64,000 bases of DNA from Vicinamibacterales bacterium (GTDB taxonomy: Bacteria > Acidobacteriota > Vicinamibacteria > Vicinamibacterales > UBA8438), in the NCBI GenBank assembly GCA_965204675.1, contig OZ242003.1, forward strand, positions 3,392,375 to 3,456,374, read 5' to 3'. The position numbers and the translations under genes were made by a program. The number at the start of each line of letters is the position of its first letter. The stretch's first letter is position 1. Shown here piece by piece: positions 4,700 through 59,679 of this stretch. The notes under the pieces are model-generated. The model saw only the letters and a list, made by a program, of their open reading frames with translations. It searched no databases and had not been told where the DNA came from.

Positions 4700-4726
4700 G
4701 GAAGCAACTTCACGGGAGGAACGACC

Positions 4727-5389
4727 ATGCGCCTGATTACAGTGGTTGCGGCGGCTTCAGTCATGCTCGCGGCGGCGCCGGGGGCGGCGCAGGACTGGAC
4801 CGAGTTCGCCAGCCAGGAGGACCGGTTCACCTGCAACTTCCCCGGCGAGCCGGAGGTGACCGAGACCACGTGGGTCTCCGAAATGGGGGCCGAGGTGCCC
4901 GCGCGCGTCTACGCCGCCGAGAGGGGCCCGAGCCGCTTCACGGTGACGGTGGCCGACTACAGCCACGTCGAGCGCATCCTCACCGAGCGGGCCGGCGAGT
5001 GCCCGCCGGGGGCGGAGCGCTGCAGCGGCGGCGGGTCGACCGGCGAGGGGTACTGGCGACACGACGTGCGGGGCGCGATGCTCTACGCGACCTGGACGTT
5101 CATGCAGCGGGACGCCGAGGTGACGCACTTGGGCTACAACTCGCTCGATCGCGTCGAGGGGCACCAGATGCACCTGACCAACCCCGACCGGTCGCGCACG
5201 TTCGTGTCGATCTACATGCACGAGGACAAGCTCTACGTCGCGGAGGGCACGGTCCCGCGGGGCTACCCCGAGCCGGCGCTCTTCCAGCAGTCGCTGGGCT
5301 GGCTCGACGAGGAAGGGAACGGGCTGCGCTACGAGGGCCCCTATTCGAACGGGTTCCCGGCGCCGCCCCGCGTCCCGGCCGTGTTCTAG
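4727..5389 (+). CDS. Secreted hypothetical protein
   Basis: ATG start with a GGAGG-like site upstream, clear signal peptide (MRLITVVAAASVMLAAAPGAAQ) and non-shadow amino-acid composition. Confidence 0.55.
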   Translation: MRLITVVAAASVMLAAAPGAAQDWTEFASQEDRFTCNFPGEPEVTETTWVSEMGAEVPARVYAAERGPSRFTVTVADYSHVERILTERAGECPPGAERCSGGGSTGEGYWRHDVRGAMLYATWTFMQRDAEVTHLGYNSLDRVEGHQMHLTNPDRSRTFVSIYMHEDKLYVAEGTVPRGYPEPALFQQSLGWLDEEGNGLRYEGPYSNGFPAPPRVPAVF

Positions 5390-12569: not shown

Positions 12570-13576
12570 GGCCGCCTCCGGCAGACGACGGTCTGCATCG
12601 CGAGGTTGCATCGCCTGACCAGCGACAGCACCGGCTGCAGCATGAGCTGCCCGGCGAAGTACGGGTAGATGGCGCGGCGCATGTTCAGCCCGCGCCCCTT
12701 CAGCACGCGGAACGCGACGCCGCAGAACAGGTAGAAGTACGGCGGAAACGCGCCGTAGGGCAGGTAGTCGACGACCTCGAGATCGGCCCTCTCGACCATT
12801 CGCAGCAGGGCCGCCCGGTCGTAGAGCGCGGTGTGCTGGGGCGCCTGCAGGCCCGGCCACCGGTCCCCGAACAGGCGGAACGTCAGGCTGTCGAGCCGCG
12901 GCACCTCGATGACCAGCCGCCCCTCGTCCTTGAGGGCGCGGCGCGCGGAGATCAGCGACGGCAGGGGCGCGTAGTCGTGCTCGAGGAAGTGCCACATCGT
13001 GACGAGGTCGAACCGGCCGGCGCCCACGTCCTGCTCGTGGAACGGGCCGCAGTGGAACTCGACCCCGCGCAGCGCGGGGCGGTCGGCGAGGTCGACGAAG
13101 TCGACGCCGACCCCGGCCGCGCCGTGCCGGGCCCGGAGGCCGGCGAGGAACGTGCCGGCGCCGCAGCCCACGTCGAGCACCGTGCTCGACGCGTCGAGGG
13201 CCAGGTACCGGCGGCAGATCCGCAGCTTCTCGCGGTCGACGGCCCCCATCGCCCACCGGAACAGGGGAGCCATCCAGCCCCAGTCGGAGCCCGGCCGGTG
13301 GGCCAGGTAGTCCTCGTCGTAGTAGTCCTTGACGCGCTCGATGGTCAGCCGGGGCGTCTGGTACACGAGGCCGCAGGCCCGGCAGCACCGGAACGTGAAG
13401 CGGCCGGGGCGCCCCGTCAGGTCGTCCTCGGCGGTGATGAAGGGGTCCGACGCGGCGTGGCCGCAGCCGCAGCAGGCCACGGCCTCGAAGTCCCGACCGT
13501 CCCCGGGATCGTTGCCGACGCGCGGCCGGGGCCGCGCATCGACGGCGGAATCGATCGCGATCGTCGTGGAGTTCAT
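12566..13576 (-). CDS. Class I SAM-dependent methyltransferase with N-terminal Cys4 zinc-ribbon
   Basis: CCGCG...CCRACG followed by VLDVGCGAGTF (motif I) and LVIEVP. ATG at 13576 is preceded by GGAGAGCGGAG. Confidence 0.75.
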   Translation of the reverse strand: MNSTTIAIDSAVDARPRPRVGNDPGDGRDFEAVACCGCGHAASDPFITAEDDLTGRPGRFTFRCCRACGLVYQTPRLTIERVKDYYDEDYLAHRPGSDWGWMAPLFRWAMGAVDREKLRICRRYLALDASSTVLDVGCGAGTFLAGLRARHGAAGVGVDFVDLADRPALRGVEFHCGPFHEQDVGAGRFDLVTMWHFLEHDYAPLPSLISARRALKDEGRLVIEVPRLDSLTFRLFGDRWPGLQAPQHTALYDRAALLRMVERADLEVVDYLPYGAFPPYFYLFCGVAFRVLKGRGLNMRRAIYPYFAGQLMLQPVLSLVRRCNLAMQTVVCRRRP

Positions 13577-13740
13577 GGCAGTGCTCCGCTCTCCGTGCGG
13601 CGCCCATCGCCGGACGGGCGCGTTGGCTTCGTCGTGGAGTTCATGGCAGTGCTCCGCTCTCCGTGCGGCGTCCATCGGCGGACGGCGTGGGTTGGCGGCT
13701 CCGAGGTGTCGTTCGTGGCGGTGCTCCGCTCTCCGCAGGC
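13561..13740 (-). repeat. Tandem duplication (68 nt, 72 nt, ~2.5 copies) of the RBS + ATGA stop/start junction upstream of the methyltransferase
   Basis: ttcatggcagtgctccgctctccgtgcggcg occurs at 13572 and 13640, with a degenerate third copy at 13712. Confidence 0.85.
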
Positions 13741-14282: not shown

Positions 14283-17035
14283 GCGGCGCCTCGCTCGTCC
14301 TCGGGCGCCGCGGCGCTCTCCGCCGTACCCGGGTCGATCGTGCAGACGCCGCGGTCGCCGTCCACGGTGACGCGCTGGCCGGACGCGATGCGGCCGGTCG
14401 CGTTCTCGACCCCGACGACGCAGGGCAGGCCGAACTCGCGCGCGACGATCGCCCCGTGCGAGAGCAGCCCGCCGCGCTCGATCACCAGCCCCGACACCAG
14501 GCCGAACACCGGCGCCCATCCGGGGTCGGTCTGGCGGGTCACCAGCACGTCGCCGCCGCGCAGGCGGGCGGCGTCGCGCACGTCGCCGAGCACCGCGGCG
14601 GGGCCCGACGCGGCGCCGCCGCACGCGCCCGTCCCGCGCAGCGTCGAGGGGCGGGGACACGGCTCGTCGCCCTGGTCCTCCCGTCCGCGCGGGATCGATC
14701 CGAAACCCGGGGCGAGGTACTCCCCCGCCGGCAGGGCGAGCGTCGCGGGGGGGCGCATGGCCCCCAGCGCCGCGTGCTCCCGCCGCCGTAGGGCGACGAG
14801 GTCGGGAACGCCGTACGGGAACATCGCGCGGCCCGCCCCGAGCGCCTCGATCTCCTGCCAGGTCAGCATGAAGACGTCGTCCGGCTTCGCGAGGCGCCCG
14901 TCGGCGGCCAGGCGCCGGCCGATGGCCAGCGCGACCCGCCGGAGGCGCGTGTAGAGCAGGGCCTGCTTCAGGCGGGCCCGCTCGCGGTAGGCGACGCTGG
15001 CCTGCGCCGCGCGCAGCAGCCAGCGCACCGCGAGGGCCAGGGCCGGGGACCGCCGGGCCAGGGTCCTCGTCACCCGGGACGTCTCCTCCACGCGCCCGGC
15101 CGCCTGCCGCGCCATCACCGCCGCCGGCGGCTCTCCGTCGCTGGCCGCGTACTGCCGGAGCAGCTCGATGACCGGGGCCGGGTCCTCCTGGAGGCTCGGC
15201 AAGGTCAGCATCAGCTCGGCCGACGAGCGGAACCCCCAGTCCTCCAGGAACCGGTCGAGCTCGCGCCGGAACCCCGCGAACCGGTCGTCGCCGCGGACCG
15301 CTTCCAGGATCGCCGGCGTCTCGCCGCTCGCGAACAGCCGGTCCAGCCGCGCGTCCGAGCGGATGAGGCGCGAGAGCGCCCAGAGGCGCAGGGGCGGCGT
15401 CGCCGACGGCACGCCGGGCAGCGCGCGCAGCAGCCGGTTGTGCAGCCCCCCGCGCGCGTCGACGCGCCGGAGCGCGCGCTGCAGCAGCGCGTAGCAGACC
15501 ATCGCCGCCGCGTCGGCGAGCGAGGCGTCCTTCCAGCCGTGGAAGCGGATGTCGAGAAACGACCGGAGATCGTCGAGCAGCCCGCTCGACGAGCGGCGGG
15601 CGAGCCGGTCGGGGTGGGTGCGCGCCGCGAAACGGTCGGCGCGATCCTCGAACGCTTCCAGCCGCCGTCGCAGGAACAGGTACTGCCGGATCGTGCAGGC
15701 CGCCACGCGCAGCAGCTCCGCCGCCTGGCCGACGCGGCCGCGGCCCTCGCCCCACCGCGTCGCGCCCGGGGGCGGCGGGGCGACGTCGTCCGCCCCCACG
15801 AACTGGTTGAACGCCCGCGCCAGCGGTTCTCCGCACGGCGCCATGCGCAGGACCGCGTGGATGCTCGTCAGGTTGTAGTACAGCCGCCCGCCGTGCACGC
15901 CCACGATCGCCGCCAGCGCCGGGTCCATGGCCGCGACCCGTCGGCGGGAGATGCCGAACGCCAGGGCGAGGTTTCGGAAGTAGTGGTAGTAGCCCGGGGC
16001 CACGAACGAGTAGAGCAGCGGGCAGATCGGGGCCGGGAAGTTCTCGTTGACGTTGGCGTTCGACCAGAGCACGGTGGGCCCGGCGGCGCCGGGCGCGTCA
16101 CCCGTCGCGGTGATCGGCCTCGACTGGAGAATCCAGAGCCGCCCGTCGTCGTCGAAGCTCCACTCGACGTCCTGGGGCGCGCCGAGCTCTCGTTCGAGGC
16201 GGAGGGCCGCGCCGGTCAGGGCGCGGACATCGGCCGCGGACAGGAGACCGCCGGGCGCCGGGGCCGACCCGGCCGGCGTCCGACCGGCGCGCGACACGAC
16301 CAGGCGCTCGGGCTCGACGCGCCCCGAGACGAGCCCGTCCGCCAGGCCGCGGCAGCACTCGATCAGGAGATCGTCACCCGACGCGCCGCCCGCGCTGGCC
16401 GGCGCGCGGGTGAAGAGCACGCCCGACACGCGGGCGGACACCTGCCGCTGGATGATGACGGCCATTCCGCCGAGCCCGGCTCGGCGCGCGGCGCGGTAGT
16501 GGAGCGACCGCTCGGACCAGTACGACGCCCAGCAGGCCCGCACCGCGCGCCGCAACGCTTCCTCCCCGGCGACGTGCAGCACCGAGTCGAACTGGCCCGC
16601 GAACGAGGCCGCGGCGCCGTCCTCTCCGACGGCGGAGCTGCGCACCGCCAACGCCCCCGCGGGCAGCTCTCGCGCGGCCGCGTCGAGCGCCTCGGCGACG
16701 GCGGCCGGCAGCGGGCGGCCCATGACCTGGGCGAGGACGGCCTCGGCGATCTCCCGGCGCCCGGCCGCGTCCGTCGGGTCGGGCCGGCGCTCGAGGGCGG
16801 CCGCGCGGGCGCCGAGCCCGTCCGCGGCCAGGAACCGGCGGAACGCCTCGCAGGTCAGGACGCGGCCCGCCGGCACCGGGAACCCGAGCCCGATCAGCTT
16901 CGCCAGGCTCGACGCCTTGCCGCCCGCCTGCCGCGGGTCGAGGGCCTGCCCGAGCGGGACCATCACGGGAGGTCCCGCGGGTCGGTCCGCCGGCGGGCGG
17001 ACCCGGACGGGCTCGAGCGCCGCCGCCCCCGTCAC
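14279..17035 (-). CDS. PEP-utilising/pyruvate-water-dikinase-like phosphotransferase (N-terminal ATP-grasp PPDK_N, C-terminal swivelling phospho-His domain)
   Basis: GGKASSLAKL, VRSSAVGEDG..SFAGQ and DVEWSFDDDGRLWILQSRPIT at the N-terminus. C-terminal DVLVTRQTDPGWAPVF...GGLLSHGAIVAREFGLP. GTG start. Confidence 0.8.
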   Translation of the reverse strand: MTGAAALEPVRVRPPADRPAGPPVMVPLGQALDPRQAGGKASSLAKLIGLGFPVPAGRVLTCEAFRRFLAADGLGARAAALERRPDPTDAAGRREIAEAVLAQVMGRPLPAAVAEALDAAARELPAGALAVRSSAVGEDGAAASFAGQFDSVLHVAGEEALRRAVRACWASYWSERSLHYRAARRAGLGGMAVIIQRQVSARVSGVLFTRAPASAGGASGDDLLIECCRGLADGLVSGRVEPERLVVSRAGRTPAGSAPAPGGLLSAADVRALTGAALRLERELGAPQDVEWSFDDDGRLWILQSRPITATGDAPGAAGPTVLWSNANVNENFPAPICPLLYSFVAPGYYHYFRNLALAFGISRRRVAAMDPALAAIVGVHGGRLYYNLTSIHAVLRMAPCGEPLARAFNQFVGADDVAPPPPGATRWGEGRGRVGQAAELLRVAACTIRQYLFLRRRLEAFEDRADRFAARTHPDRLARRSSSGLLDDLRSFLDIRFHGWKDASLADAAAMVCYALLQRALRRVDARGGLHNRLLRALPGVPSATPPLRLWALSRLIRSDARLDRLFASGETPAILEAVRGDDRFAGFRRELDRFLEDWGFRSSAELMLTLPSLQEDPAPVIELLRQYAASDGEPPAAVMARQAAGRVEETSRVTRTLARRSPALALAVRWLLRAAQASVAYRERARLKQALLYTRLRRVALAIGRRLAADGRLAKPDDVFMLTWQEIEALGAGRAMFPYGVPDLVALRRREHAALGAMRPPATLALPAGEYLAPGFGSIPRGREDQGDEPCPRPSTLRGTGACGGAASGPAAVLGDVRDAARLRGGDVLVTRQTDPGWAPVFGLVSGLVIERGGLLSHGAIVAREFGLPCVVGVENATGRIASGQRVTVDGDRGVCTIDPGTAESAAAPEDERGAA

Positions 17036-17257
17036 GCCGCCCTCGCTTTCACCCGGAGAAGGAACAGGGCGGCGCTGAACCCCGCGTGCACCAGGGGTTC
17101 GGCGAGCAGGACGAAGAGGCAGACCCGCCAGGACATCGGCACCCCCGTCATGCCGCCCTCGCCTTCACCCGGAGAAGGAACAGGGCGGCGCTGAACCCCG
17201 CGTGCACCAGGGGTCCGGCGAGCAGGACGAAGAGGCAGACCTGCCAGGAGACCGGCA
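17026..17257 (-). repeat. Tandem duplication (2 x 116 nt) of the CarS-like 3' end / dikinase-like start junction
   Basis: Copies at 17026-17141 and 17142-17257 are ~93% identical. One carries GTGACGGGGG and the other ATGACGGGGG. Confidence 0.9.
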
Positions 17258-17741
17258 CCGCCAGCGCCAGCGCCAGCAGCATCCCGGCGGTCGAGTCGAA
17301 CCGGTCCGCGACGAGGAAGACGGCCCGGAGGCGCCGCCCCGCCGCCGCCTCGCCGGGCGCGACGCCGAGCCGGCGCTTGACGAACGAGTTGGGGAGCTCG
17401 CCCGCCATGAAGCCCAGGGCCGCCCAGGCGCCGAGCAGGCCGTACGACGCCGGCGCGAGCGGCCAGAGCCCGGCGGCCGCGAGCCCCGGCCGCGCCGACA
17501 CGAGGGCCGCGAGGGCGGTGAAGCTGACGCCGGTGGCGGGCACCATCACCAGGAAACCGCGGACCGTCTTGTGCGCGCCCAGGATCGGCCGGCCGCCGAG
17601 GGCGCGGCCGCCGTCGAGGGGGACCGCGAAGCGCCGCGAGAGGGGCGCGGCCAGCCACGCGGTGTGCGCGAGGCCGGACAGGGTGAAGCCCGTCACCAGG
17701 AACAGGCCGCACGCCACGGGATCGAGGGCAGGCGCGGTCAT
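17148..17741 (-). CDS. CarS-like (CDP-archaeol synthase family, DUF46) cytidylyltransferase membrane protein
   Basis: GAHKTVRGF and GELPNSFVKRRLGVAPG...ADRFDS match the family motifs (KT.rG; GDl..SFiKRRlG; D.lD). Five TM segments; ATGA overlap at 17738-17741. Confidence 0.7.
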   Translation of the reverse strand: MTAPALDPVACGLFLVTGFTLSGLAHTAWLAAPLSRRFAVPLDGGRALGGRPILGAHKTVRGFLVMVPATGVSFTALAALVSARPGLAAAGLWPLAPASYGLLGAWAALGFMAGELPNSFVKRRLGVAPGEAAAGRRLRAVFLVADRFDSTAGMLLALALAVPVSWQVCLFVLLAGPLVHAGFSAALFLLRVKARAA

Positions 17742-20695: not shown

Positions 20696-20972
20696 CCGGA
20701 CCGAGTCGCGGCGGGCCCTGACGGCGGGCCAGGCCGGCTCCGCAGAACGGCGCGGACGCCTGGAAGGCCGGTTGGGCACCAAGCGGAGGCCGTAGCGCTA
20801 CCTTGCGGTCGCGTTCGGCGACGATTGGGGGCCGGTTCCGGCGCCCGGTGCCGGCCGCGCTCTAGCCTAGTGGTGCGTCACGTTCCAATCTTCGGACACG
20901 GACATGGGTTTACAGCGCGTAATCGTTGACGAATCACATCACCATGCCCGAACATTCAGCCGTGACGCAGCA

Positions 20973-22859: not shown

Positions 22860-22940
22860 CCGGGCAGCAGACGGGGTCGTGGAACGCCGCGGGCTGCCGG
22901 AGGGCTGGCTGGGCGGCGAGCGGAGCCGCAAGGCGACGCT
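22860..22940. repeat. Diverged intergenic copy of the ~85-nt element (family E)
   Basis: GGGCAGC...GTCGTGGAACGCCGCGGGCTGCCGGAGGGCTGGCTGGGCGGCGAGCGGAGCCGCAAGGCGACG aligns with the reverse complement of the imuB copies. Confidence 0.55.
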
Positions 22941-46430: not shown

Positions 46431-47215
46431 TGGCTGCCACGATCACCGAGCCCCCGCATCTGGCCGCGGACCTGAAGGCGCTGTACCTGTCGACGGTCGC
46501 GTCTCAGTGGCGGCCCCTGGCCGAGCAGGCCGTCCGCCAGCGTCAGGCGCCGGCCGACTACTTGGCGCAGTTGGTGCACTTGGAGGTGACCGCACGGCGG
46601 GAGCGCCGCATCCAACGCCGCATCCAGGACGCCCGCTTCCCGACACTGAAGACGCTGGACGCCTTCTCGTTCGAGGCGCAGCCGGACCTCGACCGCGACG
46701 CGGTCCTGCAGGTTTTCGACTGCCGCTTCGTCGCCGAGGCCGCCAACGTCGTGTTCGTCGGCGGGGTCGGCACGGGGAAGACGCATCTGTCCATCGCCTT
46801 GGGGATGGCCTGCTGTCAGCACGACTACCGGGTGCGGTTCGTGACCGCGGCCGAGCTGGTCACCATGCTCGTCGAGGCGCAGCAGCAGGGCCGGCTGGCC
46901 CGCAAGCTCGCCCAGCTTGCCCGCTACGACGCGGTCCACGTCGACGAGCTGGGGTACGTCCCGCTCGACAAGACCGGCGCCGACCTGCTGTTCGGGTTCA
47001 TCAGCGAGCGGTACGAGCGCCGGAGCCTGGTGGTGACGACGAATCTGCCGTTCGCGCGCTGGTCCGAGGTCTTCCTCGACCCGACGGCGGCCGCCGCGGT
47101 CATCGACCGGGTCGTGCACCACGCGACGGTACTGCAGACCACGGGCGGCAGCTTCAGGCTTCAGGCCGCCAAGCGGAACCGGTCGCCGGGCGCCGGCCGG
47201 CGGGGGGGCCGTTGA
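46430..47215 (+). CDS. istB: IS21 helper ATPase IstB
   Basis: Walker A VFVGGVGTGKTHL, Walker B VHVDELGY, and VVTTNLPFARW. The TGATG overlaps istA. Confidence 0.9.
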   Translation: MAATITEPPHLAADLKALYLSTVASQWRPLAEQAVRQRQAPADYLAQLVHLEVTARRERRIQRRIQDARFPTLKTLDAFSFEAQPDLDRDAVLQVFDCRFVAEAANVVFVGGVGTGKTHLSIALGMACCQHDYRVRFVTAAELVTMLVEAQQQGRLARKLAQLARYDAVHVDELGYVPLDKTGADLLFGFISERYERRSLVVTTNLPFARWSEVFLDPTAAAAVIDRVVHHATVLQTTGGSFRLQAAKRNRSPGAGRRGGR

Positions 47216-47532
47216 TGTCTCCGGGGCGCGCGCCTGCTCGACGGCGACTATCTTGCCGGTCGCCGCGGTGGCGACGGGCCGGTCGCGGGAGCATCCGCGG
47301 ATCGGTTGACACCGCCCGTTTCCCCACCGGGGACGGGTTGGTCACGGATGCGCAGGTCGGCGATTTGCGCGGGAAGCGGACGGCGCCGTCCGCGCTACCC
47401 GCCGAGCGCTCTACACGTACACGGCGACCGACGCGGGCCGGGCGACGGCGGGCCCGCCGTCGCCCGGCGTCGTGAACGTCCGGGCGCCGAGCCGCCCGTC
47501 ACCGGTCCGTTACGTAACGGTGCGGAGTGGTC

Positions 47533-47823
47533 ATGGCCTTGACGAACGCGGAGCGGCAGGCGCGTTACCGAGAGCGGCGGCAGGCCGGCGAGTCCCGGGT
47601 CCGGTACCGCCGGCCGGCGGACCGGCGGTCGCGGCCACAGCGGTGGGACGACGCGGTGCGGTCGCTCCTGGCGCTGCAGGACCAGTACCGGGCGTGGCGG
47701 GACGCGTTGCCGGCATCGCTTGCCGGGTCCGCGACCGCGGAGTTGCTCGAGCAGGTCTGCGAGCTGGACCTGTCGGTGCTGGAGGCCGTCGAGCTGCCCA
47801 GGGGCTTCGGGCGTGACGGCTAG
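47533..47823 (+). CDS. Hypothetical passenger protein inside the IS
   Basis: MALTNAERQARYRERRQAG...PQRWDDAVRSLLALQDQYRAWRDALP...ELPRGFGRD, located between istB and the right IS end. Confidence 0.5.
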   Translation: MALTNAERQARYRERRQAGESRVRYRRPADRRSRPQRWDDAVRSLLALQDQYRAWRDALPASLAGSATAELLEQVCELDLSVLEAVELPRGFGRDG

Positions 47824-48152
47824 ACCGCCGGCGACAGCTTCCCCTTGGTGGCCACGAAGCGGAGCCGGCGCCGGCATCCGGGAAGAACGGAGGCCGTCGA
47901 TGATGCTGACCCGGGCTGTCGGGCCCATCAGCATGACCGTGTGCTCGCCGGCGTCAAGGCGCGTCGCTTCGCTCCGCCCCCGCTTCGCGGGGCTGACGGC
48001 CTTGACGCCGGCTGCGCGCACGGTCCCGGGCGAGCCCGCCGACAGCCCGGGAACGCTCAGACAGGGAGGGCCCAGAATCTGATGCGTTGACGGATACTTG
48101 GGGGTCCCTTTTCACGTGGCCACGGGGGTCCCTTTTTCAGTTGCCATTTCCA

Positions 48153-48238
48153 ATGTGAAAGACCACCTCTTCGAACGAGATGCCCCGCTCCCGCTTCAAC
48201 CGGACGTTCTTGGCCGGATCCCAGTTGAAGCGCCGCAC
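48153..48238 (-). pseudogene. brnT: BrnT-like toxin gene, N-terminal part
   Basis: GTG at 48238. VRRFNWDPAKNVRLKRERGISFEEVVFH runs straight into the IS end. Removing the IS and one TSD copy restores one 93-codon frame. Confidence 0.75.
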
Positions 48239-48363
48239 CGCTACAGTCTAGACGAATGGATGCCTGATGTCATCGCTCAATGGCCGCGCCGCAATCGGTC
48301 ACACGGGGCGCCCATTCCCGGCGGGGTCCCGCTGGAGGGGAGAACCGCGAGGGGTTGATCGTC

Positions 48364-48381
48364 GTGATACAAATGTATTAC
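48364..48381 (+). promoter_or_regulatory. Candidate LexA operator (imperfect palindrome GTGATAC-N4-GTATTAC)
   Basis: This is the only AT-rich palindrome in the 150 nt upstream of lexA. It ends 11 nt before the ATG, and the arms match 6 of 7. Confidence 0.4.
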
Positions 48382-48392
48382 ATTCTCCAGCC

Positions 48393-49001
48393 ATGAGCCA
48401 GACACGGGCGGGGCGGACCCGCGACCGGGTGTTCCGGTTCGTTCGCGACCGGCTGCTCGCCGGCGACCCGCCGACGGTGCGCGAGGTGCAGCAGGTGTTC
48501 GGCTTTCGCACGCCGCACACGGCGCGGTACCACCTGGAGAAGCTCGTGGCCGAGCGGAAGCTGTCGGCGGCCCGCGGCAAGGCCCGGGGCTATCGCCTGC
48601 CGATGGGCGGCGAGCCGGCGGCGCCGGTGGGCTGGGTGCCGCTGCTGGGGCGGGTCGAGGCGGGGCGTCCGGCCGAGGCGGTCGAGGACGTCGAAGGCTA
48701 CGTGCCGGTGCCGGCCGACCGGGCGGGGGCGGGGCTGTTCGCGCTGCGGGTGCAGGGGCGCAGCATGGTGGGGGCGGGCATCCTGCCCGGCGACCTCGTG
48801 ATCGTGCGGCGCCAGCCGACCGCCGACCCGGGGGCGCTGGTGGTGGCCCTGGTCGACGGCGAGGCGACGGTCAAGCGGCTGCGCCGGCGGGACGGCCGGG
48901 TGGAGTTGCACCCGGAGAACCCCGAGTTCGCGCCCATCCGGTCCGACCGGGAGATCACCCTGCTCGGCAAGGTCGTCGAGGTGCGCCGCACCGTAGGTTG
49001 A
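48393..49001 (+). CDS. lexA: LexA repressor
   Basis: N-terminal wHTH (PTVREVQQVFGFRTPHTARYHLEKL). Cleavage and catalytic segments VEAGRP, VQGRSMV, GDLVIV and DGEATVKRL. Confidence 0.9.
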   Translation: MSQTRAGRTRDRVFRFVRDRLLAGDPPTVREVQQVFGFRTPHTARYHLEKLVAERKLSAARGKARGYRLPMGGEPAAPVGWVPLLGRVEAGRPAEAVEDVEGYVPVPADRAGAGLFALRVQGRSMVGAGILPGDLVIVRRQPTADPGALVVALVDGEATVKRLRRRDGRVELHPENPEFAPIRSDREITLLGKVVEVRRTVG

Positions 49002-49013
49002 TGGGAATGCGCG

Positions 49014-49712
49014 ATGGCCCGCGCCGCGCTGAAGCTTCCCCCGCGATTGACGGGGCGCCTGGACGCGACCCTGCGACGGGGTGCGCCTGCCTCTCCGGGG
49101 CCCACCGGCGGGCCGCTCCGGTCGTGGCGTCTGGCCGCCCTCGCCGGGCGCCTCGCCGAGCTGTCGAGCCGGGAGGGCGCGGCGGGGCTGACCCTGGCGT
49201 TCTCGCTGGTGCTCGACGCTCAGCGGGCCGGCGAGCCGGTGGGCTGGCTGACGGCTGACGCGAGCGCCTTCTTTCCCCCCGACGTGGCGCGCGGCGGCGT
49301 CGACCTCGACGCCCTGGTCGTCGTCCGGCTGCCGGCGGTCGGGCAGCTTCCGCGCGCGGCCGAGCACCTGGCGCGCTCGGGCGCCTTCGGCCTCCTCGTG
49401 CTCGACCTCGGCGAGGCCGCCCGGGTGCCGGTCCCGATGCAGATGCGCCTGCTCGGCCTGGCCAGAGAGCACGAGTCGGCGGTGCTGTTCCTGACCCGGA
49501 AGGGGGGCGGTGACGTGTCGCTCGGCTCCCTCGTGTCGCTCAGGGCCGAGGCGCGGCAGGAGCCGGCCGTGCGCCAGGAGGTGGTGGGGGTGGGCGCCCG
49601 CCGCGCCGGGGTCACCGACTTCACGTGCACTGCTCAAGTGCTCAAGGACAAGCGGGGCGGACCCGGGTGGAGTCACGTCGAAGTGTGTCGTGGACCGGAT
49701 GGGCTGTGTTGA
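49014..49712 (+). CDS. imuA: ImuA (RecA/SulA-like SOS mutagenesis protein)
   Basis: Sits between lexA and imuB. LAELS...GLTLAFSLVLDAQRAGEPVGWL...FGLLVLDLGE, with the C-terminus KDKRGGPGW...GPDGL. Confidence 0.75.
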   Translation: MARAALKLPPRLTGRLDATLRRGAPASPGPTGGPLRSWRLAALAGRLAELSSREGAAGLTLAFSLVLDAQRAGEPVGWLTADASAFFPPDVARGGVDLDALVVVRLPAVGQLPRAAEHLARSGAFGLLVLDLGEAARVPVPMQMRLLGLAREHESAVLFLTRKGGGDVSLGSLVSLRAEARQEPAVRQEVVGVGARRAGVTDFTCTAQVLKDKRGGPGWSHVEVCRGPDGLC

Positions 49713-49925
49713 CGGGCCGGCGCTGCCGCGCCCGGGTGTTCAAGACGAGCAGGGCGGACCGGGTGGAGTCACGTCGAGGTGTGTCGTGGACCGGATGGAC
49801 GTGTTGACGTGCCGGCGCTGCCGTGCCCGGGTGCTCGAGGACAAGCGGGGCGGGCCCGGGTGGAGTCACGTCGAGGTGTGTCGTGGACCGGATGGCCTGT
49901 GTTGACGTGCCGGCGCTGCCGCTCC
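49638..49925 (+). repeat. Tandem triplication (~96-97 nt units) of the imuA-stop / imuB-start junction
   Basis: Units begin near 49638, 49736 and 49831. Each contains GGACCGGATGG.CTGTGTTGACG.GCCGGCGCTGCCG, with ATGs at 49699, 49795 and 49892. Confidence 0.9.
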
Positions 49926-51871
49926 AGTTGCTGATGCGCCGGCAGCCCGGGTGGGCGGCGCAGCCGGCGGCGGTGGTCGACCGCGATCGGCCGCAGGGGG
50001 TCGTCGAGTGGGTGAACGAGCCGGCCCGCCGGGCCGGGGTGCTGCCCGGCATGTCGTACGCGGCGGGGCTGTCGCTGGCCGATGGGCTGCGCGCGGCCGA
50101 GGTGTCTCCCGGCGACGTCGAGGCCGGCGTCGCCGCGATCGCCGGCCTGCTGCGGCGGTTCACGCCCGGCGTCGAGCCGTCGCGCGCCCGTTCCGGGGTG
50201 TTCTGGCTCGACGCCTCGGGGCTGCAGCCGCTGTTCGCCTCCCTCGTGGACTGGGCGCGCGGGGTGCGGGTTCAGCTTCGGGCGGTGGGGTTCCGGGCAT
50301 GGGTGGTGGTGGGGTTCACCCGGTTCGGCACCTATGCGCTGGCGCGGGCCGGGGGGGAAGCCGCCCGCCGAAGGCCGGATTCCCGCGTCACGGTGCTCGA
50401 CGACGCCGAGCATGCGCGGGCGCGGGCCGGAGGGGAGGCGGCCCGCCGGGGACCGGACGGTTGCGTGGTTGGCGCGACTCGGGGGCCTGGCCCGCCCATC
50501 GTCGCCTTCGGCTCCGCCGGGCGCCCAACCAACCCTGCCAGGAGTCTGCACCGTTCTACGGCGCAGACTCCTGGCCCGCCCATCGTCGCCTTCGGCTCCG
50601 CTGGGCGCCCAACCAACCCTGCCAGGAGTCTGCACCGTTCTACGGCGCAGACTCCTGGCGCAGGCGAAGCGGTGGAAGCGGATCGTCGGCGGGCGGACGG
50701 CGGGGTAACGGTGCTCGAGGACGCCGCGGCCGAGCGGCGGGCGGCCCGCCGCGTCCCGCTGCGCCGGCTCGACGTCGACCCCGCGCTGCGCGACGCCCTC
50801 GACAAGCTCGGGGTCCGCACCGTGGGGGCGTTCCTGCGGCTGCCGGCCGCCGGCGTCCGGCGGCGTTTCGGCCGCGAGGCGCATCGGCTGCACCGCGAGG
50901 CGGCGGGGGACCTGGTGGTCCCTTTCCAGCCCGCGCCGGCGGTCGAGCCGCTCGCGCGCCGCCTCGATCTCGATGAGCCGGAGACCGGGGTCGAGGGCCT
51001 GCTGTTCCTGGTCAAGCAGGCCCTCGACCCGCTGCTCGGGGTGATGGCGTCGCGGCAGGAGGCGTTGGCCGGCCTCGAGCTCCGCCTGCGGCTGGACGCG
51101 CCGGCCGCGGCGCCGCGGGTCGAGCGGGTCGAGAGCATTCGCCCCGCCGCCCCGACCCTCGACATCCGGCAGGTCCTGAACCTCGTGCGTCTGCGCGTCG
51201 AGGGCCTGGCCCGCCAATCGTCGCCTGACGGCTCCGCTGGGCGCCCGACCGACCCGCCGGGAGCCCGCGCCGTTCCACGGCGCAGACTCCCGACCCTGTC
51301 CGCCGGGGTGATCGAGATCGCCCTGGCGGTGACGCCGGCGCGGGCGACCCGCGAGCAGTTGCGGCTCTTTCAGGAGGGGGGGCGGCGTGACCTCCGGGCC
51401 GCGGACCGCGCGGTGGCCCGCATCAGGGCCGAGTTCGGGGACGGTGCGGTGGTGCGGGCGGCGCTCGCCGACGGGCATCTGCCCGAGGCGGCCTTCGCCT
51501 GGCTGCCGCTGGATCACGTCGTGCGCCCGGTCCCCGCCCCGACCGGCGCCCTCTCGCTGGTGCGGCGTCTCTTCGTCGCGCCGCGCCGGGTGCCGTCCCG
51601 GCGGCGGCGCGAGCTGGACGGCCGGGTGTCGGGCGGCGCCGGCCACGATTCCGCGCCGGCCGCGGCGGACCGGGACGCCCATGGTCCGCCGGCAACGGCT
51701 GCAACCGGCCGGGCCGCCGGAATGCGCGGGCCCTACGTGGTGTCGGGCGGCTGGTGGAGAACTCCGGTCCACCGGGAGTACTACTTCGCCAGCGCCGGCG
51801 GGCGCACTTGGCGGTGGATCTACTACGACCGCCGCCGCCGGGCCTGGTTCGAGCAGGGCGCGGTGGAATGA
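49892..51871 (+). CDS. imuB: ImuB (Y-family polymerase-like SOS mutagenesis protein)
   Basis: MACVDVPALPLQLL..., VVEWVNEPARRAGVLPGM, position in the cassette, and the third-copy ATG. It contains three in-frame repeat-element insertions. Confidence 0.85.
   Translation: MACVDVPALPLQLLMRRQPGWAAQPAAVVDRDRPQGVVEWVNEPARRAGVLPGMSYAAGLSLADGLRAAEVSPGDVEAGVAAIAGLLRRFTPGVEPSRARSGVFWLDASGLQPLFASLVDWARGVRVQLRAVGFRAWVVVGFTRFGTYALARAGGEAARRRPDSRVTVLDDAEHARARAGGEAARRGPDGCVVGATRGPGPPIVAFGSAGRPTNPARSLHRSTAQTPGPPIVAFGSAGRPTNPARSLHRSTAQTPGAGEAVEADRRRADGGVTVLEDAAAERRAARRVPLRRLDVDPALRDALDKLGVRTVGAFLRLPAAGVRRRFGREAHRLHREAAGDLVVPFQPAPAVEPLARRLDLDEPETGVEGLLFLVKQALDPLLGVMASRQEALAGLELRLRLDAPAAAPRVERVESIRPAAPTLDIRQVLNLVRLRVEGLARQSSPDGSAGRPTDPPGARAVPRRRLPTLSAGVIEIALAVTPARATREQLRLFQEGGRRDLRAADRAVARIRAEFGDGAVVRAALADGHLPEAAFAWLPLDHVVRPVPAPTGALSLVRRLFVAPRRVPSRRRRELDGRVSGGAGHDSAPAAADRDAHGPPATAATGRAAGMRGPYVVSGGWWRTPVHREYYFASAGGRTWRWIYYDRRRRAWFEQGAVE
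50486..50653 (+). repeat. Two tandem 84-nt copies of element E, in frame within imuB
   Basis: CCTGGCCCGCCCATCGTCGCCTTCGGCTCCGC.GGGCGCCCAACCAACCCTGCCAGGAGTCTGCACCGTTCTACGGCGCAGACT occurs twice. It encodes PGPPIVAFGSAGRPTNPARSLHRSTAQT twice. The hairpin is GGAGTCTGC-N13-GCAGACTCC. Confidence 0.9.
51205..51290 (+). repeat. Third, diverged copy of element E in imuB
   Basis: CCTGGCCCGCCAATCGTCGCCTGACGGCTCCGCTGGGCGCCCGACCGACCCGCCGGGAGCCCGCGCCGTTCCACGGCGCAGACTCC, translated as LARQSSPDGSAGRPTDPPGARAVPRRRLP. Confidence 0.8.
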
Positions 51872-52045
51872 AACCGCGGCGGAACGAGCCGATCAGGATC
51901 TGCCATGGCCGCGCTGCCGGGGCTGGTCGAGCAGGGCGCGGTGGAATGAAACCGCGGTGGAACGAGCCGCGGTGATGCCGAGCCGCGGTGGTGGAACGAG
52001 CTGCGGCGGAACCGCGGTGGAAAACGAGCCGGGTGGAAGCGGGCC
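51844..52045 (+). repeat. 78-nt tandem duplication of the imuB stop junction plus ~5 copies of a CCGCGGTGGAACGAGC motif upstream of dnaE2
   Basis: GAGCAGGGCGCGGTGGAATGAAACCGCGG.GGAACGAGCC occurs at 51851 and 51929. Motif copies lie near 51873, 51952, 51983 and 52012. Confidence 0.85.
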
Positions 52046-52048
52046 GAG

Positions 52049-55000
52049 GTGGAGACGTACGCGCCGCTCTGGTGCAAGAGCAACTACTCGTTTCTGGAAG
52101 GCGCCTCCCATCCCGAGGAGCTGGTCGAGCAGGCCCACGCCCTGGGCCTGCCCGGCCTCGCGCTGACCGACCGGGACGGCGTGTACGGCATCGTGCGCGC
52201 CCACGTGCGGGCCCGCGAGCTCGGCGTGCACCTGATGTGCGGGGCCGAGCTGTCGCTGGACGGCGGGGCGAAGCTGGTGCTGCTGGCCACCGATCGCGCC
52301 GGCTACGCCAACCTCTGCCGGCTCGTCACCCGCGGCCGACGCCGGCACGCCAAGGGCGAGTGCAGCGTCACCGTGGACGAGGTCTGCGGGCACGCCGCCG
52401 GGCTGCTGGCCCTCTGGCCCGGCGCCCACTGGGCGGCCGAGGCCGACGCCGCCCGCGACCGCCCGGCTCTGGCCGCGCTCCGCGACGCCTTCGGCGACCG
52501 GGCTTGCGGGCTGCTGGCGCGCCACCGCCTCGCCGCCGAGGCCCCGCGGGAAGGGTGGCTGCGGGCGCAGGCCCAAGAGATAGGTCTGCCCCTGGCGGCG
52601 GCGACGGAGGTGCTCTACCACGACCCGGCCCGCCGTGACCTCCAGGACGTGCTGACCTGCATCCGGCACGGCGTCAGCCTCGCCCGGGCGGGGCGCCGCA
52701 TCCGCGCCAACGCCGAGCATGGCCTGAAGGCGCCGGCCGCCTTCGCCGAGCTGTTCCGCGACGACCCCGGCGCGGTGGCGCGCACGGTCGAGATCGCGGC
52801 CCGGTGCCGCTTCTCGCTCGCCGAGATCCGCTACCGCTATCCGTCCGAGCGCCTGCCCGACGGCGACACCTCGTCGAGCTGGCTCCGCCGGCTCGCCGAG
52901 GAGGGGGCGCGGCGGCGCTTCGGGGGCCGCGTCCCCGCCGCGGTGCGGACGCAGATTGCGAAGGAGCTGGCCCTCATCGACGAGCTCGACTACTGCGGCT
53001 ACTTCCTCACCATGTGGGAGATCGTCGAGTTCTGCCGCCGCCACGGCATCCTCTGCCAGGGGCGGGGGTCGGCCGCCAACTCGGCCGTCTGCTACTGCCT
53101 CGGCATCACCGCCGTCGACCCCACGCGGGTCGATCTGCTGTTCGAGCGCTTCCTGTCGCGCGAGCGGGCCGAGCCGCCCGACATCGACCTCGACATCATG
53201 CACGAGCGGCGGGAAGAGGTGATTCAGTTCGTCTACGAGAAGTACGGGCGCGACCGGGCGGCGATGGTCGCCAACGTCGTCCGCTACCGCGCCCGCTCGG
53301 CCGTGCGCGAGGTGGGGAAGGCGCTGGGGCTGCCCGAGACCGCGGTCGACCGGCTCGCCAGGCGGCTGTCCCACCACGATGCCGTCGACGGGGACACGGT
53401 GCGGCAGGTGCTCGACGGCGAAGGACCGGCGGCGGCGCACCTCGTGCGACTCGCCGGCGAGATCCGGGACTTTCCCCGCCACCTGTCCATCCACCCCGGC
53501 GGCTTCCTGCTGGGCCACGAGCCGGTGCACGACCTGGTGCCGATCGAGAACGCGGCGATGCCCGGACGCACCGTCATTCAATGGGACAAGGACGACCTGG
53601 AGGACCTCGGGCTGTTCAAGGTCGACCTGCTGGGGCTGGGGGCGCTGACCCAGCTCGACCTGTCGTTCGGGCTGCTGGCGCGGCACTACGGCCGCACCCT
53701 GTCGATGGCCGCGATTCCGGAGGGGGACGAGGCCACCTACGACATGATCTGCCGCGGCGACACCGTCGGCGTCTTCCAGATCGAGAGCCGGGCGCAGATG
53801 GCGATGCTGCCGCGGCTCAGGCCGCGCAGCTACTACGACCTCGTCATCGAGGTGTCCATCGTCCGGCCGGGGCCCATCACCGGCGGGATGGTGCACCCGT
53901 ACCTGCGGCGGCGCAACGGGGAGGAGGCGGTGGCCTACCCCCACCCGTGCCTCGAGCCGGTGCTCGCGAAGACGCTGGGGGTGCCGCTGTTCCAGGAGCA
54001 GGTGATGCAGCTCGCGATGGTCGCGGCCGACTACACCCCCGGCGAGGCCGACCAGTTGCGGCGCGACATGGCGGCGTGGCGGCGCAGCGGGCGCATCGAG
54101 CGCCACCACGACCGGCTCGTCGGCCGGATGACGGCCAAGGGCATCGCCCCCGAGTTCGCCGAGCGGGTGTTCGGCCAGATTCGCGGCTTCGGGGAGTACG
54201 GGTTCCCCGAGAGCCACGCGGCCAGCTTCGCCCTCATCGCCTACGCCACGTCCTGGCTGCGGTGCCACTATCCCGACGTCTTCACCTGTGCGCTGCTCAA
54301 CGCGCAGCCGATGGGGTTCTACGCGCCGGCCACCATCGTCGACGACGCCCGGCGGCACGGCGTCGACGTGCGCCCGGTCGACGTCACCTGCAGCGGCTGG
54401 GACTGCACCCTGGAGCCGGCCGGGACGCCGTCTTCTCCGGCCCCGGGGGCGGGCGGGTCGGCGGGGCCGGTGAGGCCGGGGCGGACCAGCGCCGCCTCAC
54501 CACCGCGACGCTCGTCACCCGACGCGCGTCATTCCGACCGCCGGCAGCGCGTTGACGCTAGCGCCGCCTCACCACCGCGACGCTCGTCACCCGACCGACC
54601 CGCCGGAAGCCCGCGCCATCTCCGGGGACGGCGCGGTTCCGAGGAGCGGAAGCCCGGGTTCGCGGTGCGGATGGGCCTGCGGTACGTCAAGGGGCTGTCC
54701 GAATCGCGCGACTGGGCCCGCATCGAGGCCGCCCGCGGGCGAGCGCCGTTCGGCTCGGTCGCCGACTTCGTGGCCCGGACCGGCCTCGACGAGAAGATGG
54801 CGGGCCGGCTCGCCGAGGCGGGGGCGCTGGCCGGTCTCGAGCGGCGGCGCCGCGACGCGCTCTGGCAGGTCCGCGGCCTCGTCCGTGCGCTCGCGCCGGT
54901 CCTGCCGCCCGGGGCCGCGCGGGACGAGACCCCGGGGTTCGACGACCTCGATCCGGGCGAGACCATCGCGTGGGACTACCGCACCAGCGCGCACAGCCCG

Positions 55001-55369
55001 CGCGGCCATCCCCTCGCCGCCCTGCGGGCGCAGCTCGGGGCCCGGGGCCTCCCCGACGCCCGCACCGTCTCGGCGATGCGCGACGGGCGGAAGACGCGCT
55101 ACGCCGGGCTCGTCATCTGCCGCCAGCGTCCCGGCACCGCGGGCGGGGTCGTGTTCATGACCCTCGAGGACGAGACCGGGTTCGTGAACCTGGTGGTCTG
55201 GAGCCGGGTGTTCGACGAGCATGCCCTGGTCGCCCGGACCGCGTCGTTCCTCGGCGTGACCGGCAGGATCCAGCGGGCGGGCGGCGTCGTCCACCTCGTC
55301 GCCGACACGCTGTGGCGCCCCGAGCTCGACACGGGGCCGAACGCGGTCGGCAGCCGGGACTTCCACTAG
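52049..55369 (+). CDS. dnaE2: Error-prone DNA polymerase DnaE2 (ImuC)
   Basis: PHP domain ([17 protein letters not shown]; [11 protein letters not shown]), the pol III alpha core ([19 protein letters not shown]) and an OB fold at the C-terminus. GTG is the first canonical in-frame start after the stop at 51947. Confidence 0.9.
54488..54640 (+). repeat. Direct repeat (2 x 36 nt, 72-nt offset) plus right half of element E, in frame in dnaE2
   Basis: AGCGCCGCCTCACCACCGCGACGCTCGTCACCCGAC occurs at 54488 and 54560. It is followed by CGACCGACCCGCCGGAAGCCCGCGCC, as in the 51205 copy. It encodes [11 protein letters not shown] twice. Confidence 0.75.
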
Positions 55370-55429
55370 GAGCCCTGCACCGTGTTGTCCTTCAACCCTT
55401 TTAAAACAAACACTTTAAGATGATCTGGA

Positions 55430-55458
55430 TTGACTTGAATCGGTTCGTTGCCTATCAT
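55430..55458 (+). promoter_or_regulatory. Sigma-70-like promoter
   Basis: TTGACT (55430-55435), a 17-nt spacer, then TATCAT (55453-55458), in an AT-rich gap 45 nt upstream of the 55503 ATG. Confidence 0.5.
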
Positions 55459-55502
55459 GGGCCGTTTCCCAGATTCACCCTCGTTCCAGGAGATCAACTT
55501 CC

Positions 55503-56543
55503 ATGAAAGACTGTGTTCGAAGCGCGTGGGTCGTGGCCGGATGCGTCACGGCGATGCTGTTGGCGGCTCCGCCGGTCGGCGCGCAAGATCTCGAAGACTG
55601 GCAGGAAGACGAGCTGCGTACCTTGGTCGCGGCCGTGGACGAGGCCCTGCGGGGGGCGCGCGCCCCCGACGAAGGCGCCATCACCTATCTGCCCAGCTAC
55701 CTCAAGGGCGCCGAGGACGTCACCTATGTCCCGTTCACGCTGCTGATCGATCCCGCGGCGGTGAGCGATGCGGACAACGACGTCCAGGACAACATCGTCG
55801 CGTACGTGGCCATGGCCGAGGCGGGCTCGACGGACCTGGACTTCGAGAACGGCTTCTACGTCGAGTCCGACGAGCGGGAGGCCGGTCGGGTGCGCGTCGC
55901 CGGCAACCTGCAGGCCGAGGGCGGCGACTACGATCTCTACATCGCCATCCGCTACAGCTTCGACGGCGAGGCGCCGGTGGAGGCGACCATCGACGCCTTC
56001 GGGCGGCAAAGCCGGCAGACGCTCGTGCCGCCGATCACCCTCCTGCGCGAGCGGGTCACGATTCCCGACCTGTGGAACGACGATCTGCAGACCAGCAGCA
56101 TCCTCCTGACCGAGGACGTGCAGCCGTTGCAGCAGGCCCCGACCCCGGAAGAGCTCGCGGAGTTCCCCTACATGGTCGGCCCGACCCGGGTCATCCCCCG
56201 GCTGAGCGGCGACTTCGGCAGGCAGGACGTGCTGGGCTTCGTGTTCGTCATCTACAACACCGGACACGACGGCGGCATGCCCGACGTCACCGTCGACTAC
56301 GACTTCTACACGCGGAACGACGGCGGCGAGGACTTCTTCAACCGCACCGCGCCGCAGGCGCTCGGCCCGCAGACGCTGCCGCCGGGCTTCGACGTGCGGC
56401 AGGGGATGCAGCTCGTGACCGGGCAGAACATTCCCCTCGGCGGATTCCCGGCCGGCTCCTATCGCCTCGAGATCAAGGTCACCGACAACGAAGAGGACGA
56501 AGAGTTGACGCAGGACCTCTTCTTCTCGGTCGCCGACAACTAG
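55503..56543 (+). CDS. Secreted hypothetical protein
   Basis: Signal peptide (VVAGCVTAMLLAAPPVGAQ) and acidic, beta-rich composition. No motif recognised. Confidence 0.6.
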   Translation: MKDCVRSAWVVAGCVTAMLLAAPPVGAQDLEDWQEDELRTLVAAVDEALRGARAPDEGAITYLPSYLKGAEDVTYVPFTLLIDPAAVSDADNDVQDNIVAYVAMAEAGSTDLDFENGFYVESDEREAGRVRVAGNLQAEGGDYDLYIAIRYSFDGEAPVEATIDAFGRQSRQTLVPPITLLRERVTIPDLWNDDLQTSSILLTEDVQPLQQAPTPEELAEFPYMVGPTRVIPRLSGDFGRQDVLGFVFVIYNTGHDGGMPDVTVDYDFYTRNDGGEDFFNRTAPQALGPQTLPPGFDVRQGMQLVTGQNIPLGGFPAGSYRLEIKVTDNEEDEELTQDLFFSVADN

Positions 56544-59590: not shown

Positions 59591-59679
59591 CCTGGCCCGC
59601 CAATCGTCACCTTCGGCTCGGCTGGCGCCCAACCAACCCTCCACGAGTCCACGCCGTTCTACCGCGCAGACTCCTGGCC
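59591..59679 (+). repeat. Copy of element E overlapping the 3' end of the symporter gene
   Basis: CCTGGCCCGCCAATCGTCACCTTCGGCTCGGCTGGCGCCCAACCAACCCTCCACGAGTCCACGCCGTTCTACCGCGCAGACTCCTGGCC. The reverse strand supplies codons G-Q-E-S-A-R and the stop. Confidence 0.85.

Follow-up and report, generated by a model that had tools for sequence, protein, structure and literature searches.

A three-unit tandem array derived from the imuA/imuB junction of a Vicinamibacterales mutasome operon

The mutasome operon and the array at its imuA/imuB junction

The 64,000-nt stretch of DNA analysed here (the window) has a G+C content of 72%. Its closest relatives are metagenome-assembled Vicinamibacterales (Acidobacteriota), and the sequencing runs containing window sequence were sponge, coral and marine metagenomes. 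Four genes on the forward strand follow the order lexA-imuA-imuB-dnaE2, that of the SOS mutagenesis operon or mutasome cassette (PMC10421592, PMC11002988, PMC6511836). The operon is headed by lexA (48393-49001), whose 202-residue product matched TIGR00498 with 158.6 bits and carries Peptidase_S24 and LexA_DNA_bind domains; its ATG start at 48393 agrees with a 202-aa gene call in a related scaffold, L081. An AT-rich near-palindrome, GATACAAATGTATTAC, lies at 48366-48381 immediately 5' of lexA and represents a candidate SOS box.

The second gene (49014-49712) encodes a 232-residue, RecA-fold, ImuA-like protein. Residues 44-139 matched the RecA core (E 1e-5), and the match to the ImuA model NF033429 was weak (23.8 bits, far under the cut-off of 150). 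Homologues of this protein are called 'recombinase A' in public sources, and its exact sequence is absent from the gene index; synteny is consistent with its identity as ImuA. More than 40 homologues, as far as Deferrisoma, share the C-terminus ...VLKDKRGGPGWxHVEVCRGPDGL[CR]. The third gene, imuB (49892-51871), encodes 659 residues, of which 4-143 matched Pfam IMS with 28.8 bits (cut-off 23.2). The profile search returned no match to an ImuB-specific model and a PDB sequence search of ImuB found no relative, while position and synteny fit ImuB, and the N-terminus, MACVDVPALPLQLL, is common to the window and its single-copy relatives. A dispersed element of 84 nt is inserted in imuB three times, each time in frame. 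The last gene, dnaE2 (52049-55369), encodes an error-prone C-family polymerase of 1106 residues that matched NF004225 over its full length with 1355.6 bits (cut-off 939).

A tandem array occupies the junction between imuA and imuB. TRF reported a single array at 49638-49922 with a period of 97, 2.9 copies, 87% matches and a score of 461, and anchor positions together with alignment placed its full extent at 49638-49927, comprising three tandem units of 98, 95 and 97 nt. Each unit holds the 3' end of imuA, a stop codon and an overlapping imuB start, as the original prediction had described. Unit 1 (49638-49735, 98 nt) contains the native imuA 3' end and stop together with a first pseudo-start (ATG 49699); unit 2 (49736-49830, 95 nt) is a decayed copy bearing a second pseudo-start (ATG 49795); and unit 3 (49831-49927, 97 nt) contains an imuA-like end (VLEDKRGG...GLC followed by a stop) and then the true imuB start. 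Units 1 and 2 are 89.8% identical, units 1 and 3 91.8%, and units 2 and 3 86.9%. Unit 2 had been described as 1 nt shorter; it is indeed shorter, but rather than a simple loss of 1 nt, its alignment to unit 1 shows three separate deletions of 1 nt each, which are also present in the related scaffolds L081 and L082. BLAST of the unit against the 64-kb window found just the three array copies (E 1e-29 to 1e-48) and no further copy such as a dispersed family would provide, the next best match having an E of 0.04. The repeat is far above chance, and its unit is local rather than a dispersed element. With head-to-tail copies of one unit and a copy number that differs between populations, the array has the properties of a VNTR or minisatellite.

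Because more than 40 ImuA homologues share the same C-terminus, the native imuA stop is that of unit 1, namely the TGA at 49710-49712, in agreement with the predicted position of 49712. ATG 49699 opens a 68-codon ORF (49699-49905) that reads MGCVDGPALPRPGVQDEQ...VLEDKRGGPGWSHVEVCRGPDGLC before its stop, and its C-terminal end is like that of ImuA. The TGA of this ORF (49903-49905) overlaps the true imuB ATG at 49892, again as predicted. The two pseudo-starts, 49699 (68 codons) and 49795 (36 codons), share one frame, both ending at 49905. The longest ORF in the imuB frame opens at GTG 49823, 69 nt 5' of the true start, and gene callers may misplace the imuB start (ATG or GTG) in such arrays. 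No internal promoter or terminator was predicted in the array in a scan of the + strand over 47800-52300. A metatranscriptome contig from run X23 spans 49777-49933 with no mismatch, indicating that the array is probably transcribed, with DNA carry-over a possible source of this contig.

Copy number in metagenomes and history of the junction

The three-unit form was present in contigs of runs X1, X2, X4, X5, X8, X11, X12 and X17. The array was found in at least 6 independent metagenome assemblies or runs, and the contigs that cross it without gaps come from at least 4 studies. In X1 and X2 (both from sample S1) and in X4, words specific to all three units occurred at the depth of the flanks, and in X2 a 40-mer common to units 2 and 3 occurred at twice the flanking depth. 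A SNP at 49771 breaks this 40-mer in X5, X8 and X12, runs from three other studies in which the entire array is crossed gap-free by single contigs. Three units were likewise present in the independent ENA metagenome scaffolds L081, L082 and L083, whose ImuA proteins are 95%, 90% and 90% identical, respectively, to that of the window. Runs X20, X27 and X28, which are strain mixtures with uneven depth across the unit joins, were kept outside the copy-number count. The original prediction had named single-unit reads as the outcome that would speak against it; the reads do not support a single unit.

One run departed from the three-unit form. X3, which carries the same organism label and comes from sample S2, yielded a 1284-nt contig at a depth of 150 that omits exactly 97 nt, and the depth of words bridging unit 2 and unit 3 was zero. 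X3 is a 2-unit allele. In X3, ATG 49699 shares the imuB frame, and the resulting ORF of 691 codons extends ImuB by 32 residues at its N-terminus. The three-unit allele was uniform in most samples examined. The copy-number heterogeneity anticipated by the original prediction was thus found, both in this 2-unit allele and among related species, which have 1, 2, 3 or ~4 units.

We surveyed the junction at 80 loci from representative genomes, and the closest ~24 Vicinamibacterales genomes were compared in detail. The usual arrangement among the 80 loci was a single junction in which the imuB ATG lies 11 nt before the imuA stop, giving a 14-nt overlap (ATGGCCTGTGTTGA). This overlap was present in all single-copy Vicinamibacterales relatives, and the same overlap architecture was found in several other phyla. 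These comparisons of sequence show that the ancestral state was a single 14-nt imuA/imuB overlap.

In 12 of the closest ~24 genomes the imuA/imuB junction was rearranged. A 97-nt type of unit was present twice in L002, three times in the window, L081, L082, L083 and L013, and ~4 times in L001, where one unit is internally deleted. A 101-nt type was present in L016, L031 and L012 (the last with an extra internal duplication), and its end points differ from those of the 97-nt type, including less imuA and more imuB. L005 has a partial, 85-nt copy at the junction. L015 contains an insertion of ~1.17 kb with two ORFs, bordered by a duplicated junction core of ~35 nt, and its first ATG is changed to ACG. 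In a neighbour-joining tree of imuA plus imuB, genomes with the 97-nt type formed one clade, with the single-copy L007 as its sister; the 101-nt type, L015 and the single-copy L014 formed another clade, and L005 fell within a single-copy clade. A single origin of the 97-nt type is supported by an A>G change, producing VLEDKRGG, that is common to its units other than the first. Taken together, these relationships show at least three independent duplications at the junction (97-nt, 101-nt and partial), followed by expansion, contraction and decay.

The relay frame and the imuB initiation region

The original prediction suggested that expression of the mutasome subunits may depend on a relay, in which ribosomes would pass from imuA to the unit-1 ATG, through the 68-codon ORF and onto imuB, so that imuB and dnaE2 output would depend on the chain and be tuned by the number of units. 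The geometry of the window would permit such a hand-over, in that both pseudo-starts read the frame that stops at 49903-49905 across ATG 49892. Conservation of the 14-nt stop/start overlap extends across phyla, so that translational coupling between imuA and imuB is probably important. That a short ORF may hand ribosomes on to a coupled gene is moreover a recognised idea, as for MIRUs, and coupling declines steeply with the distance between stop and start (PMC12548453), so that a relay would restore it.

Comparison with relatives supported this view in part. The merged 68-codon relay ORF is common to the window and its two nearest relatives, L081 and L082, and L002 has a perfect 36-codon relay ORF (MACVDAPALPPRVLEDKRGGPGWRRVEVCRGPDGLC followed by a stop); in these four the unit ORF overlaps the flanking stop and start. 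In most of the other arrays, however, the relay frame was lost. In L083 the ORF ends at a TAA ~50 nt short of the true ATG, and its unit-2 stop is mutated; in L005 the relay ORF terminates early; in L016, L031 and L012 the pseudo-ORF passes the true ATG out of frame; and in L015, with its inserted 1.17 kb, the pseudo-ATG is absent (ACG). None of these six loci, nor the X3 allele, which joins the pseudo-start to imuB as a natural fusion, retains a unit ORF with such an overlap, and in L013 and L001 a relay would require GTG restarts. The frame was kept in ~2 of 8 lineages or alleles, compared to a chance expectation of 1 in 3; judged by these frames, relay survival is at the level of chance. 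Furthermore, the in-frame property follows automatically from a clean 97-nt unit, which gives an in-frame mini-ORF of 97 + 14 = 111 nt. Throughout these changes imuB remained intact and open in all rearranged lineages and alleles.

The last codons of imuA provided a second line of evidence. At 50 loci from several phyla, rare synonymous codons were used almost invariably at this position: CGT accounted for 43 of 45 Arg codons (background 0.11), GGA for 47 of 50 codons (background 0.13) and GAT for 38 of 50 (background 0.26), while GAG was used in 50 of 50 (background 0.80) and GGC in 49 of 50. This codon usage shows constraint at the nucleotide level on an element, GAGGTNTGYCGTGGACCGGATGG, that terminates in the imuB start codon, and which we infer to be the imuB translation-initiation region. 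Every unit of the array contains a complete copy (GAGGTGTGTCGTGGACCGGATGG), at 49680-49702, 49776-49798 and 49873-49895 on the + strand. Copy 3 serves the true imuB ATG 49892, as judged from the synonymous-site conservation over the 50 loci, copy 2 reads GAGGTGTGTCGTGGACCGGATGG, and copy 1 has GAAGTG... in place of the otherwise universal GAG. The unit-1 change from GAG to GAA is consistent with a now dispensable start that is under relaxed constraint or is selected against. All surviving rearrangements retain the initiation stretch directly 5' of the true imuB ATG, the shortest retained copy being that of L015, which begins at GAGG.

Because each unit has a complete conserved initiation region, the true imuB start would have its own signal. 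The original prediction had named an independent start signal as evidence against the relay, and the initiation region of unit 3 is evidence of that kind. Together with the loss of the relay frame in most related arrays and with the X3 fusion, it argues against dependence of imuB on relay translation, which we therefore regard as possible but unlikely. We instead favour, with a probability of roughly 70%, the view that the array is a near-neutral, locally derived junction VNTR or minisatellite, in which a relay may operate but is not required for imuB.

Duplicated junctions, a proposed origin and known systems

Tandem duplication was not confined to the imuA/imuB junction. The lexA/imuA junction is tandemly duplicated in L001, L005, L011, L012, L013, L015, L031 and L082, with 2-3 copies of 95-101-nt units that, where inspected, consist of the lexA end (VVEVRRTVG followed by a stop), the spacer and the imuA start; variation at this junction was also seen in metatranscriptome contigs. 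At the imuB/dnaE2 junction of the window, a tandem duplication of the imuB end (51816-51969, + strand, 80-nt offset) encodes AWFEQGAVE and its stop twice, 5' of dnaE2. A similar array is present in L002, and arrays lie at or near this junction in L007 (4.7 copies) and L031. Elsewhere in the window, a gene end and its ATGA-overlapping start are duplicated at 17026-17259, and an SD-like motif plus ATG is triplicated just 5' of a gene start at 13561-13735. Arrays at these other junctions have their own units, unrelated to that of imuA/imuB. Within the window, 5 of the 9 local direct-repeat arrays fall inside the 6.4-kb operon, which makes up 10% of the sequence. Over 18 loci, which are not phylogenetically independent, we counted 35 arrays in the operon part compared to 2 in the 2.4 kb upstream.

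Recurrence of arrays at all three operon junctions in many relatives, together with their enrichment in the operon, raises the question of whether they represent a contingency locus, that is, selected copy-number switches that set the level of the mutasome. Adding or removing a unit, whose length is not divisible by 3, would switch the pseudo-starts between a relay, an N-terminal fusion and an overrun, and the natural 3- and 2-unit alleles correspond to a relay and to a 32-aa N-terminal extension of ImuB, respectively. The ~10-fold repeat enrichment in the operon is likewise not obviously predicted by pure neutral survivorship. On the other hand, unrelated junctions of the window are duplicated too, which suggests a genome-wide mutational habit; the arrays decay in the manner of neutral DNA, by point mutation and indels; and most of the samples examined show the same 3-unit allele. 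We consider selected switches of this kind quite improbable. The related idea that, in sponge-associated Vicinamibacterales, the three mutasome junctions might act as a heritable, reversible dial on the error-prone polymerase complex is also improbable.

We likewise questioned whether the 68-codon ORF might encode a functional small protein, or the array a structured regulatory RNA. L081 and L082 retain the ORF, and divergence of the spacer is low: from the imuA stop to the true ATG, 2 of 179 nt (1.1%) differ among the window, L081 and L082, compared to ~7% at four-fold sites of the flanking genes. The low-divergence block, however, extends over ~49378-49917 and reaches 330 nt upstream into the fast-evolving, variable linker of imuA, such that purifying selection on the spacer could not be attributed to the array. 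Low spacer divergence could mean constraint on the array, and a recent recombination tract would explain it equally well. As to a protein, the central part of the ORF reads imuA-derived sequence out of frame, the best family match was sub-threshold at 17.8 bits, other arrays of the 97-nt type do not conserve the ORF, and of the 3 substitutions that separate the window, L081 and L082, 2 alter the encoded residue in its frame. As to an RNA, a search of Rfam over 47000-56000 (E<=1) returned no match, and folding of the array was less stable than that of shuffled sequence (z = +3.0; single units +1.35, +0.07 and +0.8); a structured RNA was therefore rejected, and a function of either sort is very improbable. 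Considered together, low spacer divergence and repeat enrichment would be compatible with a hot spot or with selection on coupling.

Finally, mis-assembly is a well-known hazard of tandem repeats and the shorter form came from one run (X3), but an artefact masking a truly single-unit genome was ruled out by unit-specific words of all three units at flank-level depth in X1, X2 and X4, by single contigs that cross the whole array in X5, X8 and X12, by three independent scaffolds with three units and by an X3 form that still has two units rather than one.

A near-neutral junction VNTR accommodates these findings through the following proposed course of events. In the ancestor, the imuB initiation region would have been written into the last ~8 codons of imuA, with the 14-nt overlap, and slippage or unequal exchange would then have copied ~97 nt across the junction. 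Microhomology at the unit boundaries (CCGC-CCGGGTGCT against CCGCTCCAGTTGCT) amounts to 11 of 14 positions with a gap, and without a gap it is not clearly above background. Because this match is weak, slippage is something that we infer and no more, and microhomology was not adopted as its established cause. After duplication, the first copy would complete imuA and the last would provide the imuB initiation region and N-terminus, leaving the material between them spare and free to decay. The 97-nt array arose once, at the base of a subclade, with 2 units that expanded to 3-4, and units continue to be gained and lost. With an initiation region and an ATG kept in each unit, the pseudo-starts probably fire. 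Termination-reinitiation onto imuB would be physically possible in the window genome, where the stop that ends the frame of both pseudo-starts overlaps the true ATG, and what is known of reinitiation makes such a ribosome hand-over plausible (PMC12548453). The relay geometry would nevertheless be a by-product of the unit length and of later indels, rather than a maintained requirement.

Genomes of this group would often make tandem duplications of ~70-120 nt. Those inside genes would usually be harmful, whereas those spanning a boundary may be kept because they leave both genes whole, after which they would drift in copy number and decay. The same process could account for the arrays at the other two operon junctions and at other gene junctions of the window. 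The host is a sponge-associated Vicinamibacterales bacterium (Acidobacteriota), and the array is most likely a tolerated by-product of frequent tandem duplication whose copy number varies.

If the array is near-neutral, it would show that overlapping, coupled genes can be separated without damage, and that the only duplications to survive are those copying the upstream tail together with the downstream initiation region. Because survival is limited to duplications that include this region, the surviving duplicates would in effect map it, and they agree with a stretch of ~23 nt in which synonymous sites hardly vary across phyla. The clade constitutes a natural allelic series of 1, 2, 3 and ~4 units that covers relay, fusion and overrun, and which could serve to test the importance of ImuA-ImuB coupling for the mutasome. 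If the array is instead selected, it would be a contingency locus of a new kind, with mutagenesis capacity as its target.

We found no report in the literature linking imuA/imuB, or the imuA-imuB-dnaE2 cassette, with junction duplication. With respect to the known mutasome cassette, the window operon is alike in having LexA, an ImuA-like protein with a RecA fold, a putative Y-family ImuB and a C-family DnaE2 in matching order. It differs in its ImuA, at 23.8 bits against the NCBIfam cut-off of 150, and in the three in-frame 84-nt insertions of its imuB. With respect to coupling through overlapping stop and start codons, the ancestral 14-nt overlap is typical, in that the upstream gene contains the initiation region of the downstream one, and it is conserved across phyla; in contrast, in this clade the overlap has been separated by 72-216 nt (~1.16 kb in L015) with both genes kept. 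By analogy, the closest known counterpart of the imuA/imuB array is the mycobacterial MIRU-VNTR, which consists of tandem 46-101-bp units between operon genes, with small ORFs coupled to the flanking genes (PMC12548453). Both have tandem units of ~100 nt between co-transcribed genes and a copy number that varies between strains, and in MIRUs, as in the arrays of the window, L081, L082 and L002, the stop of the short unit ORF overlaps the next start, such that ribosomes could pass downstream (PMC12548453). MIRUs, however, are dispersed and insert at many start codons, whereas the imuA/imuB unit is made from local gene ends, and its coupling frame is not maintained across relatives.

Conserved and duplicated junctions of the operon

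We examined the end of imuA, whose last nine codons (49680-49712) show extreme conservation of synonymous sites across phyla in loci from other genomes and scaffolds (L001-L080). The conserved codons in this stretch, CGT GGA CCG GAT GGC, run counter to codon bias. Conservation at synonymous sites implies that the imuA end holds a putative nucleotide-level signal for imuB initiation. When the window was compared with its two nearest relatives (L081 & L082), a block of ~540 nt (49378-49917) displayed about 1% divergence, versus 5-6% on both of its sides. This block spans the fast-evolving linker of imuA together with the entire array of three imuA/imuB junction units, and may represent a recent recombination tract. 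In another relative (L015), a 1.17-kb insertion (3780-4935 of that locus) precisely separates the stop of imuA from the start of imuB. It contains two ORFs and has a duplicated core of the junction (about 35 nt) at its flanks; judged by eye, its second ORF resembles a putative nucleotidyltransferase-type toxin or antitoxin partner.

The lexA/imuA junction is likewise tandemly duplicated in L001, L005, L011, L012, L013, L015, L031 and L082, with 2-3 copies of 95-101-nt units at locus coordinates of about 2760-3060 (479-756 in L082). In all 4 arrays inspected, the unit comprised the lexA end, a 12-nt spacer and the imuA start. The window's own lexA/imuA junction is single (48990-49030). Directly upstream of the lexA ATG is an AT-rich near-palindrome, GATACAAATGTATTAC (48366-48381), in a genome of 72% G+C; it is a candidate SOS operator. 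Further upstream is a direct repeat of 24 nt x2 (GGGGGTCCCTTTTCA..., 48100-48146).

At the imuB/dnaE2 junction, the imuB end is duplicated (51816-51969), such that AWFEQGAVE* is encoded twice at an 80-nt offset, and short 16-nt repeats (CGCGGTGGAACGAGCC-like) are also present (51937-52040). Together these repeats lengthen the imuB/dnaE2 spacer to 178 nt, compared to apparently only about 15-30 nt in L011 and L013.

Repeats within operon genes and elsewhere in the window

Direct repeats were also found inside dnaE2 (54488-54595; 72-nt offset, with a 12-residue stretch encoded twice) and imuB (50334-50448; 78-nt offset). Counting these, the operon holds 5 of the 9 local repeat arrays of the window. 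Beyond the operon, a further junction duplication (116 nt x2, 95% identical) is located at 17026-17259 among minus-strand genes, and carries one gene's end (...LLRVKARAA*) together with the start of the following gene, which overlaps it as ATGA/GTGA. A 68-nt repeat present in 2.5 copies (13561-13735, minus strand) carries an SD-like GGAGAG and an ATG (MNSTT...), the latter decayed to ACG in the first copy.

A dispersed 84-nt element in imuB

The imuB interior contains three copies of an 84-nt dispersed element (50486-50569, 50570-50653 and 51205-51290), each in frame (28 codons) and bearing the hairpin end AGTCTGC.CCGT...ACGG.GCAGACT. Other copies lie at 8515-8594 (minus strand) and 59591-59672, with partial copies at 22901-22938 and 20737-20792. 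Its depth in metagenome DNA runs was 50-100x that of its flanks, it occurs in both orientations in imuB of relatives, and one metatranscriptome contig precisely lacks it at 51208-51291. The element has no match in Rfam. Rickettsia palindromic elements insert into coding genes, and the 84-nt element is similar to these.
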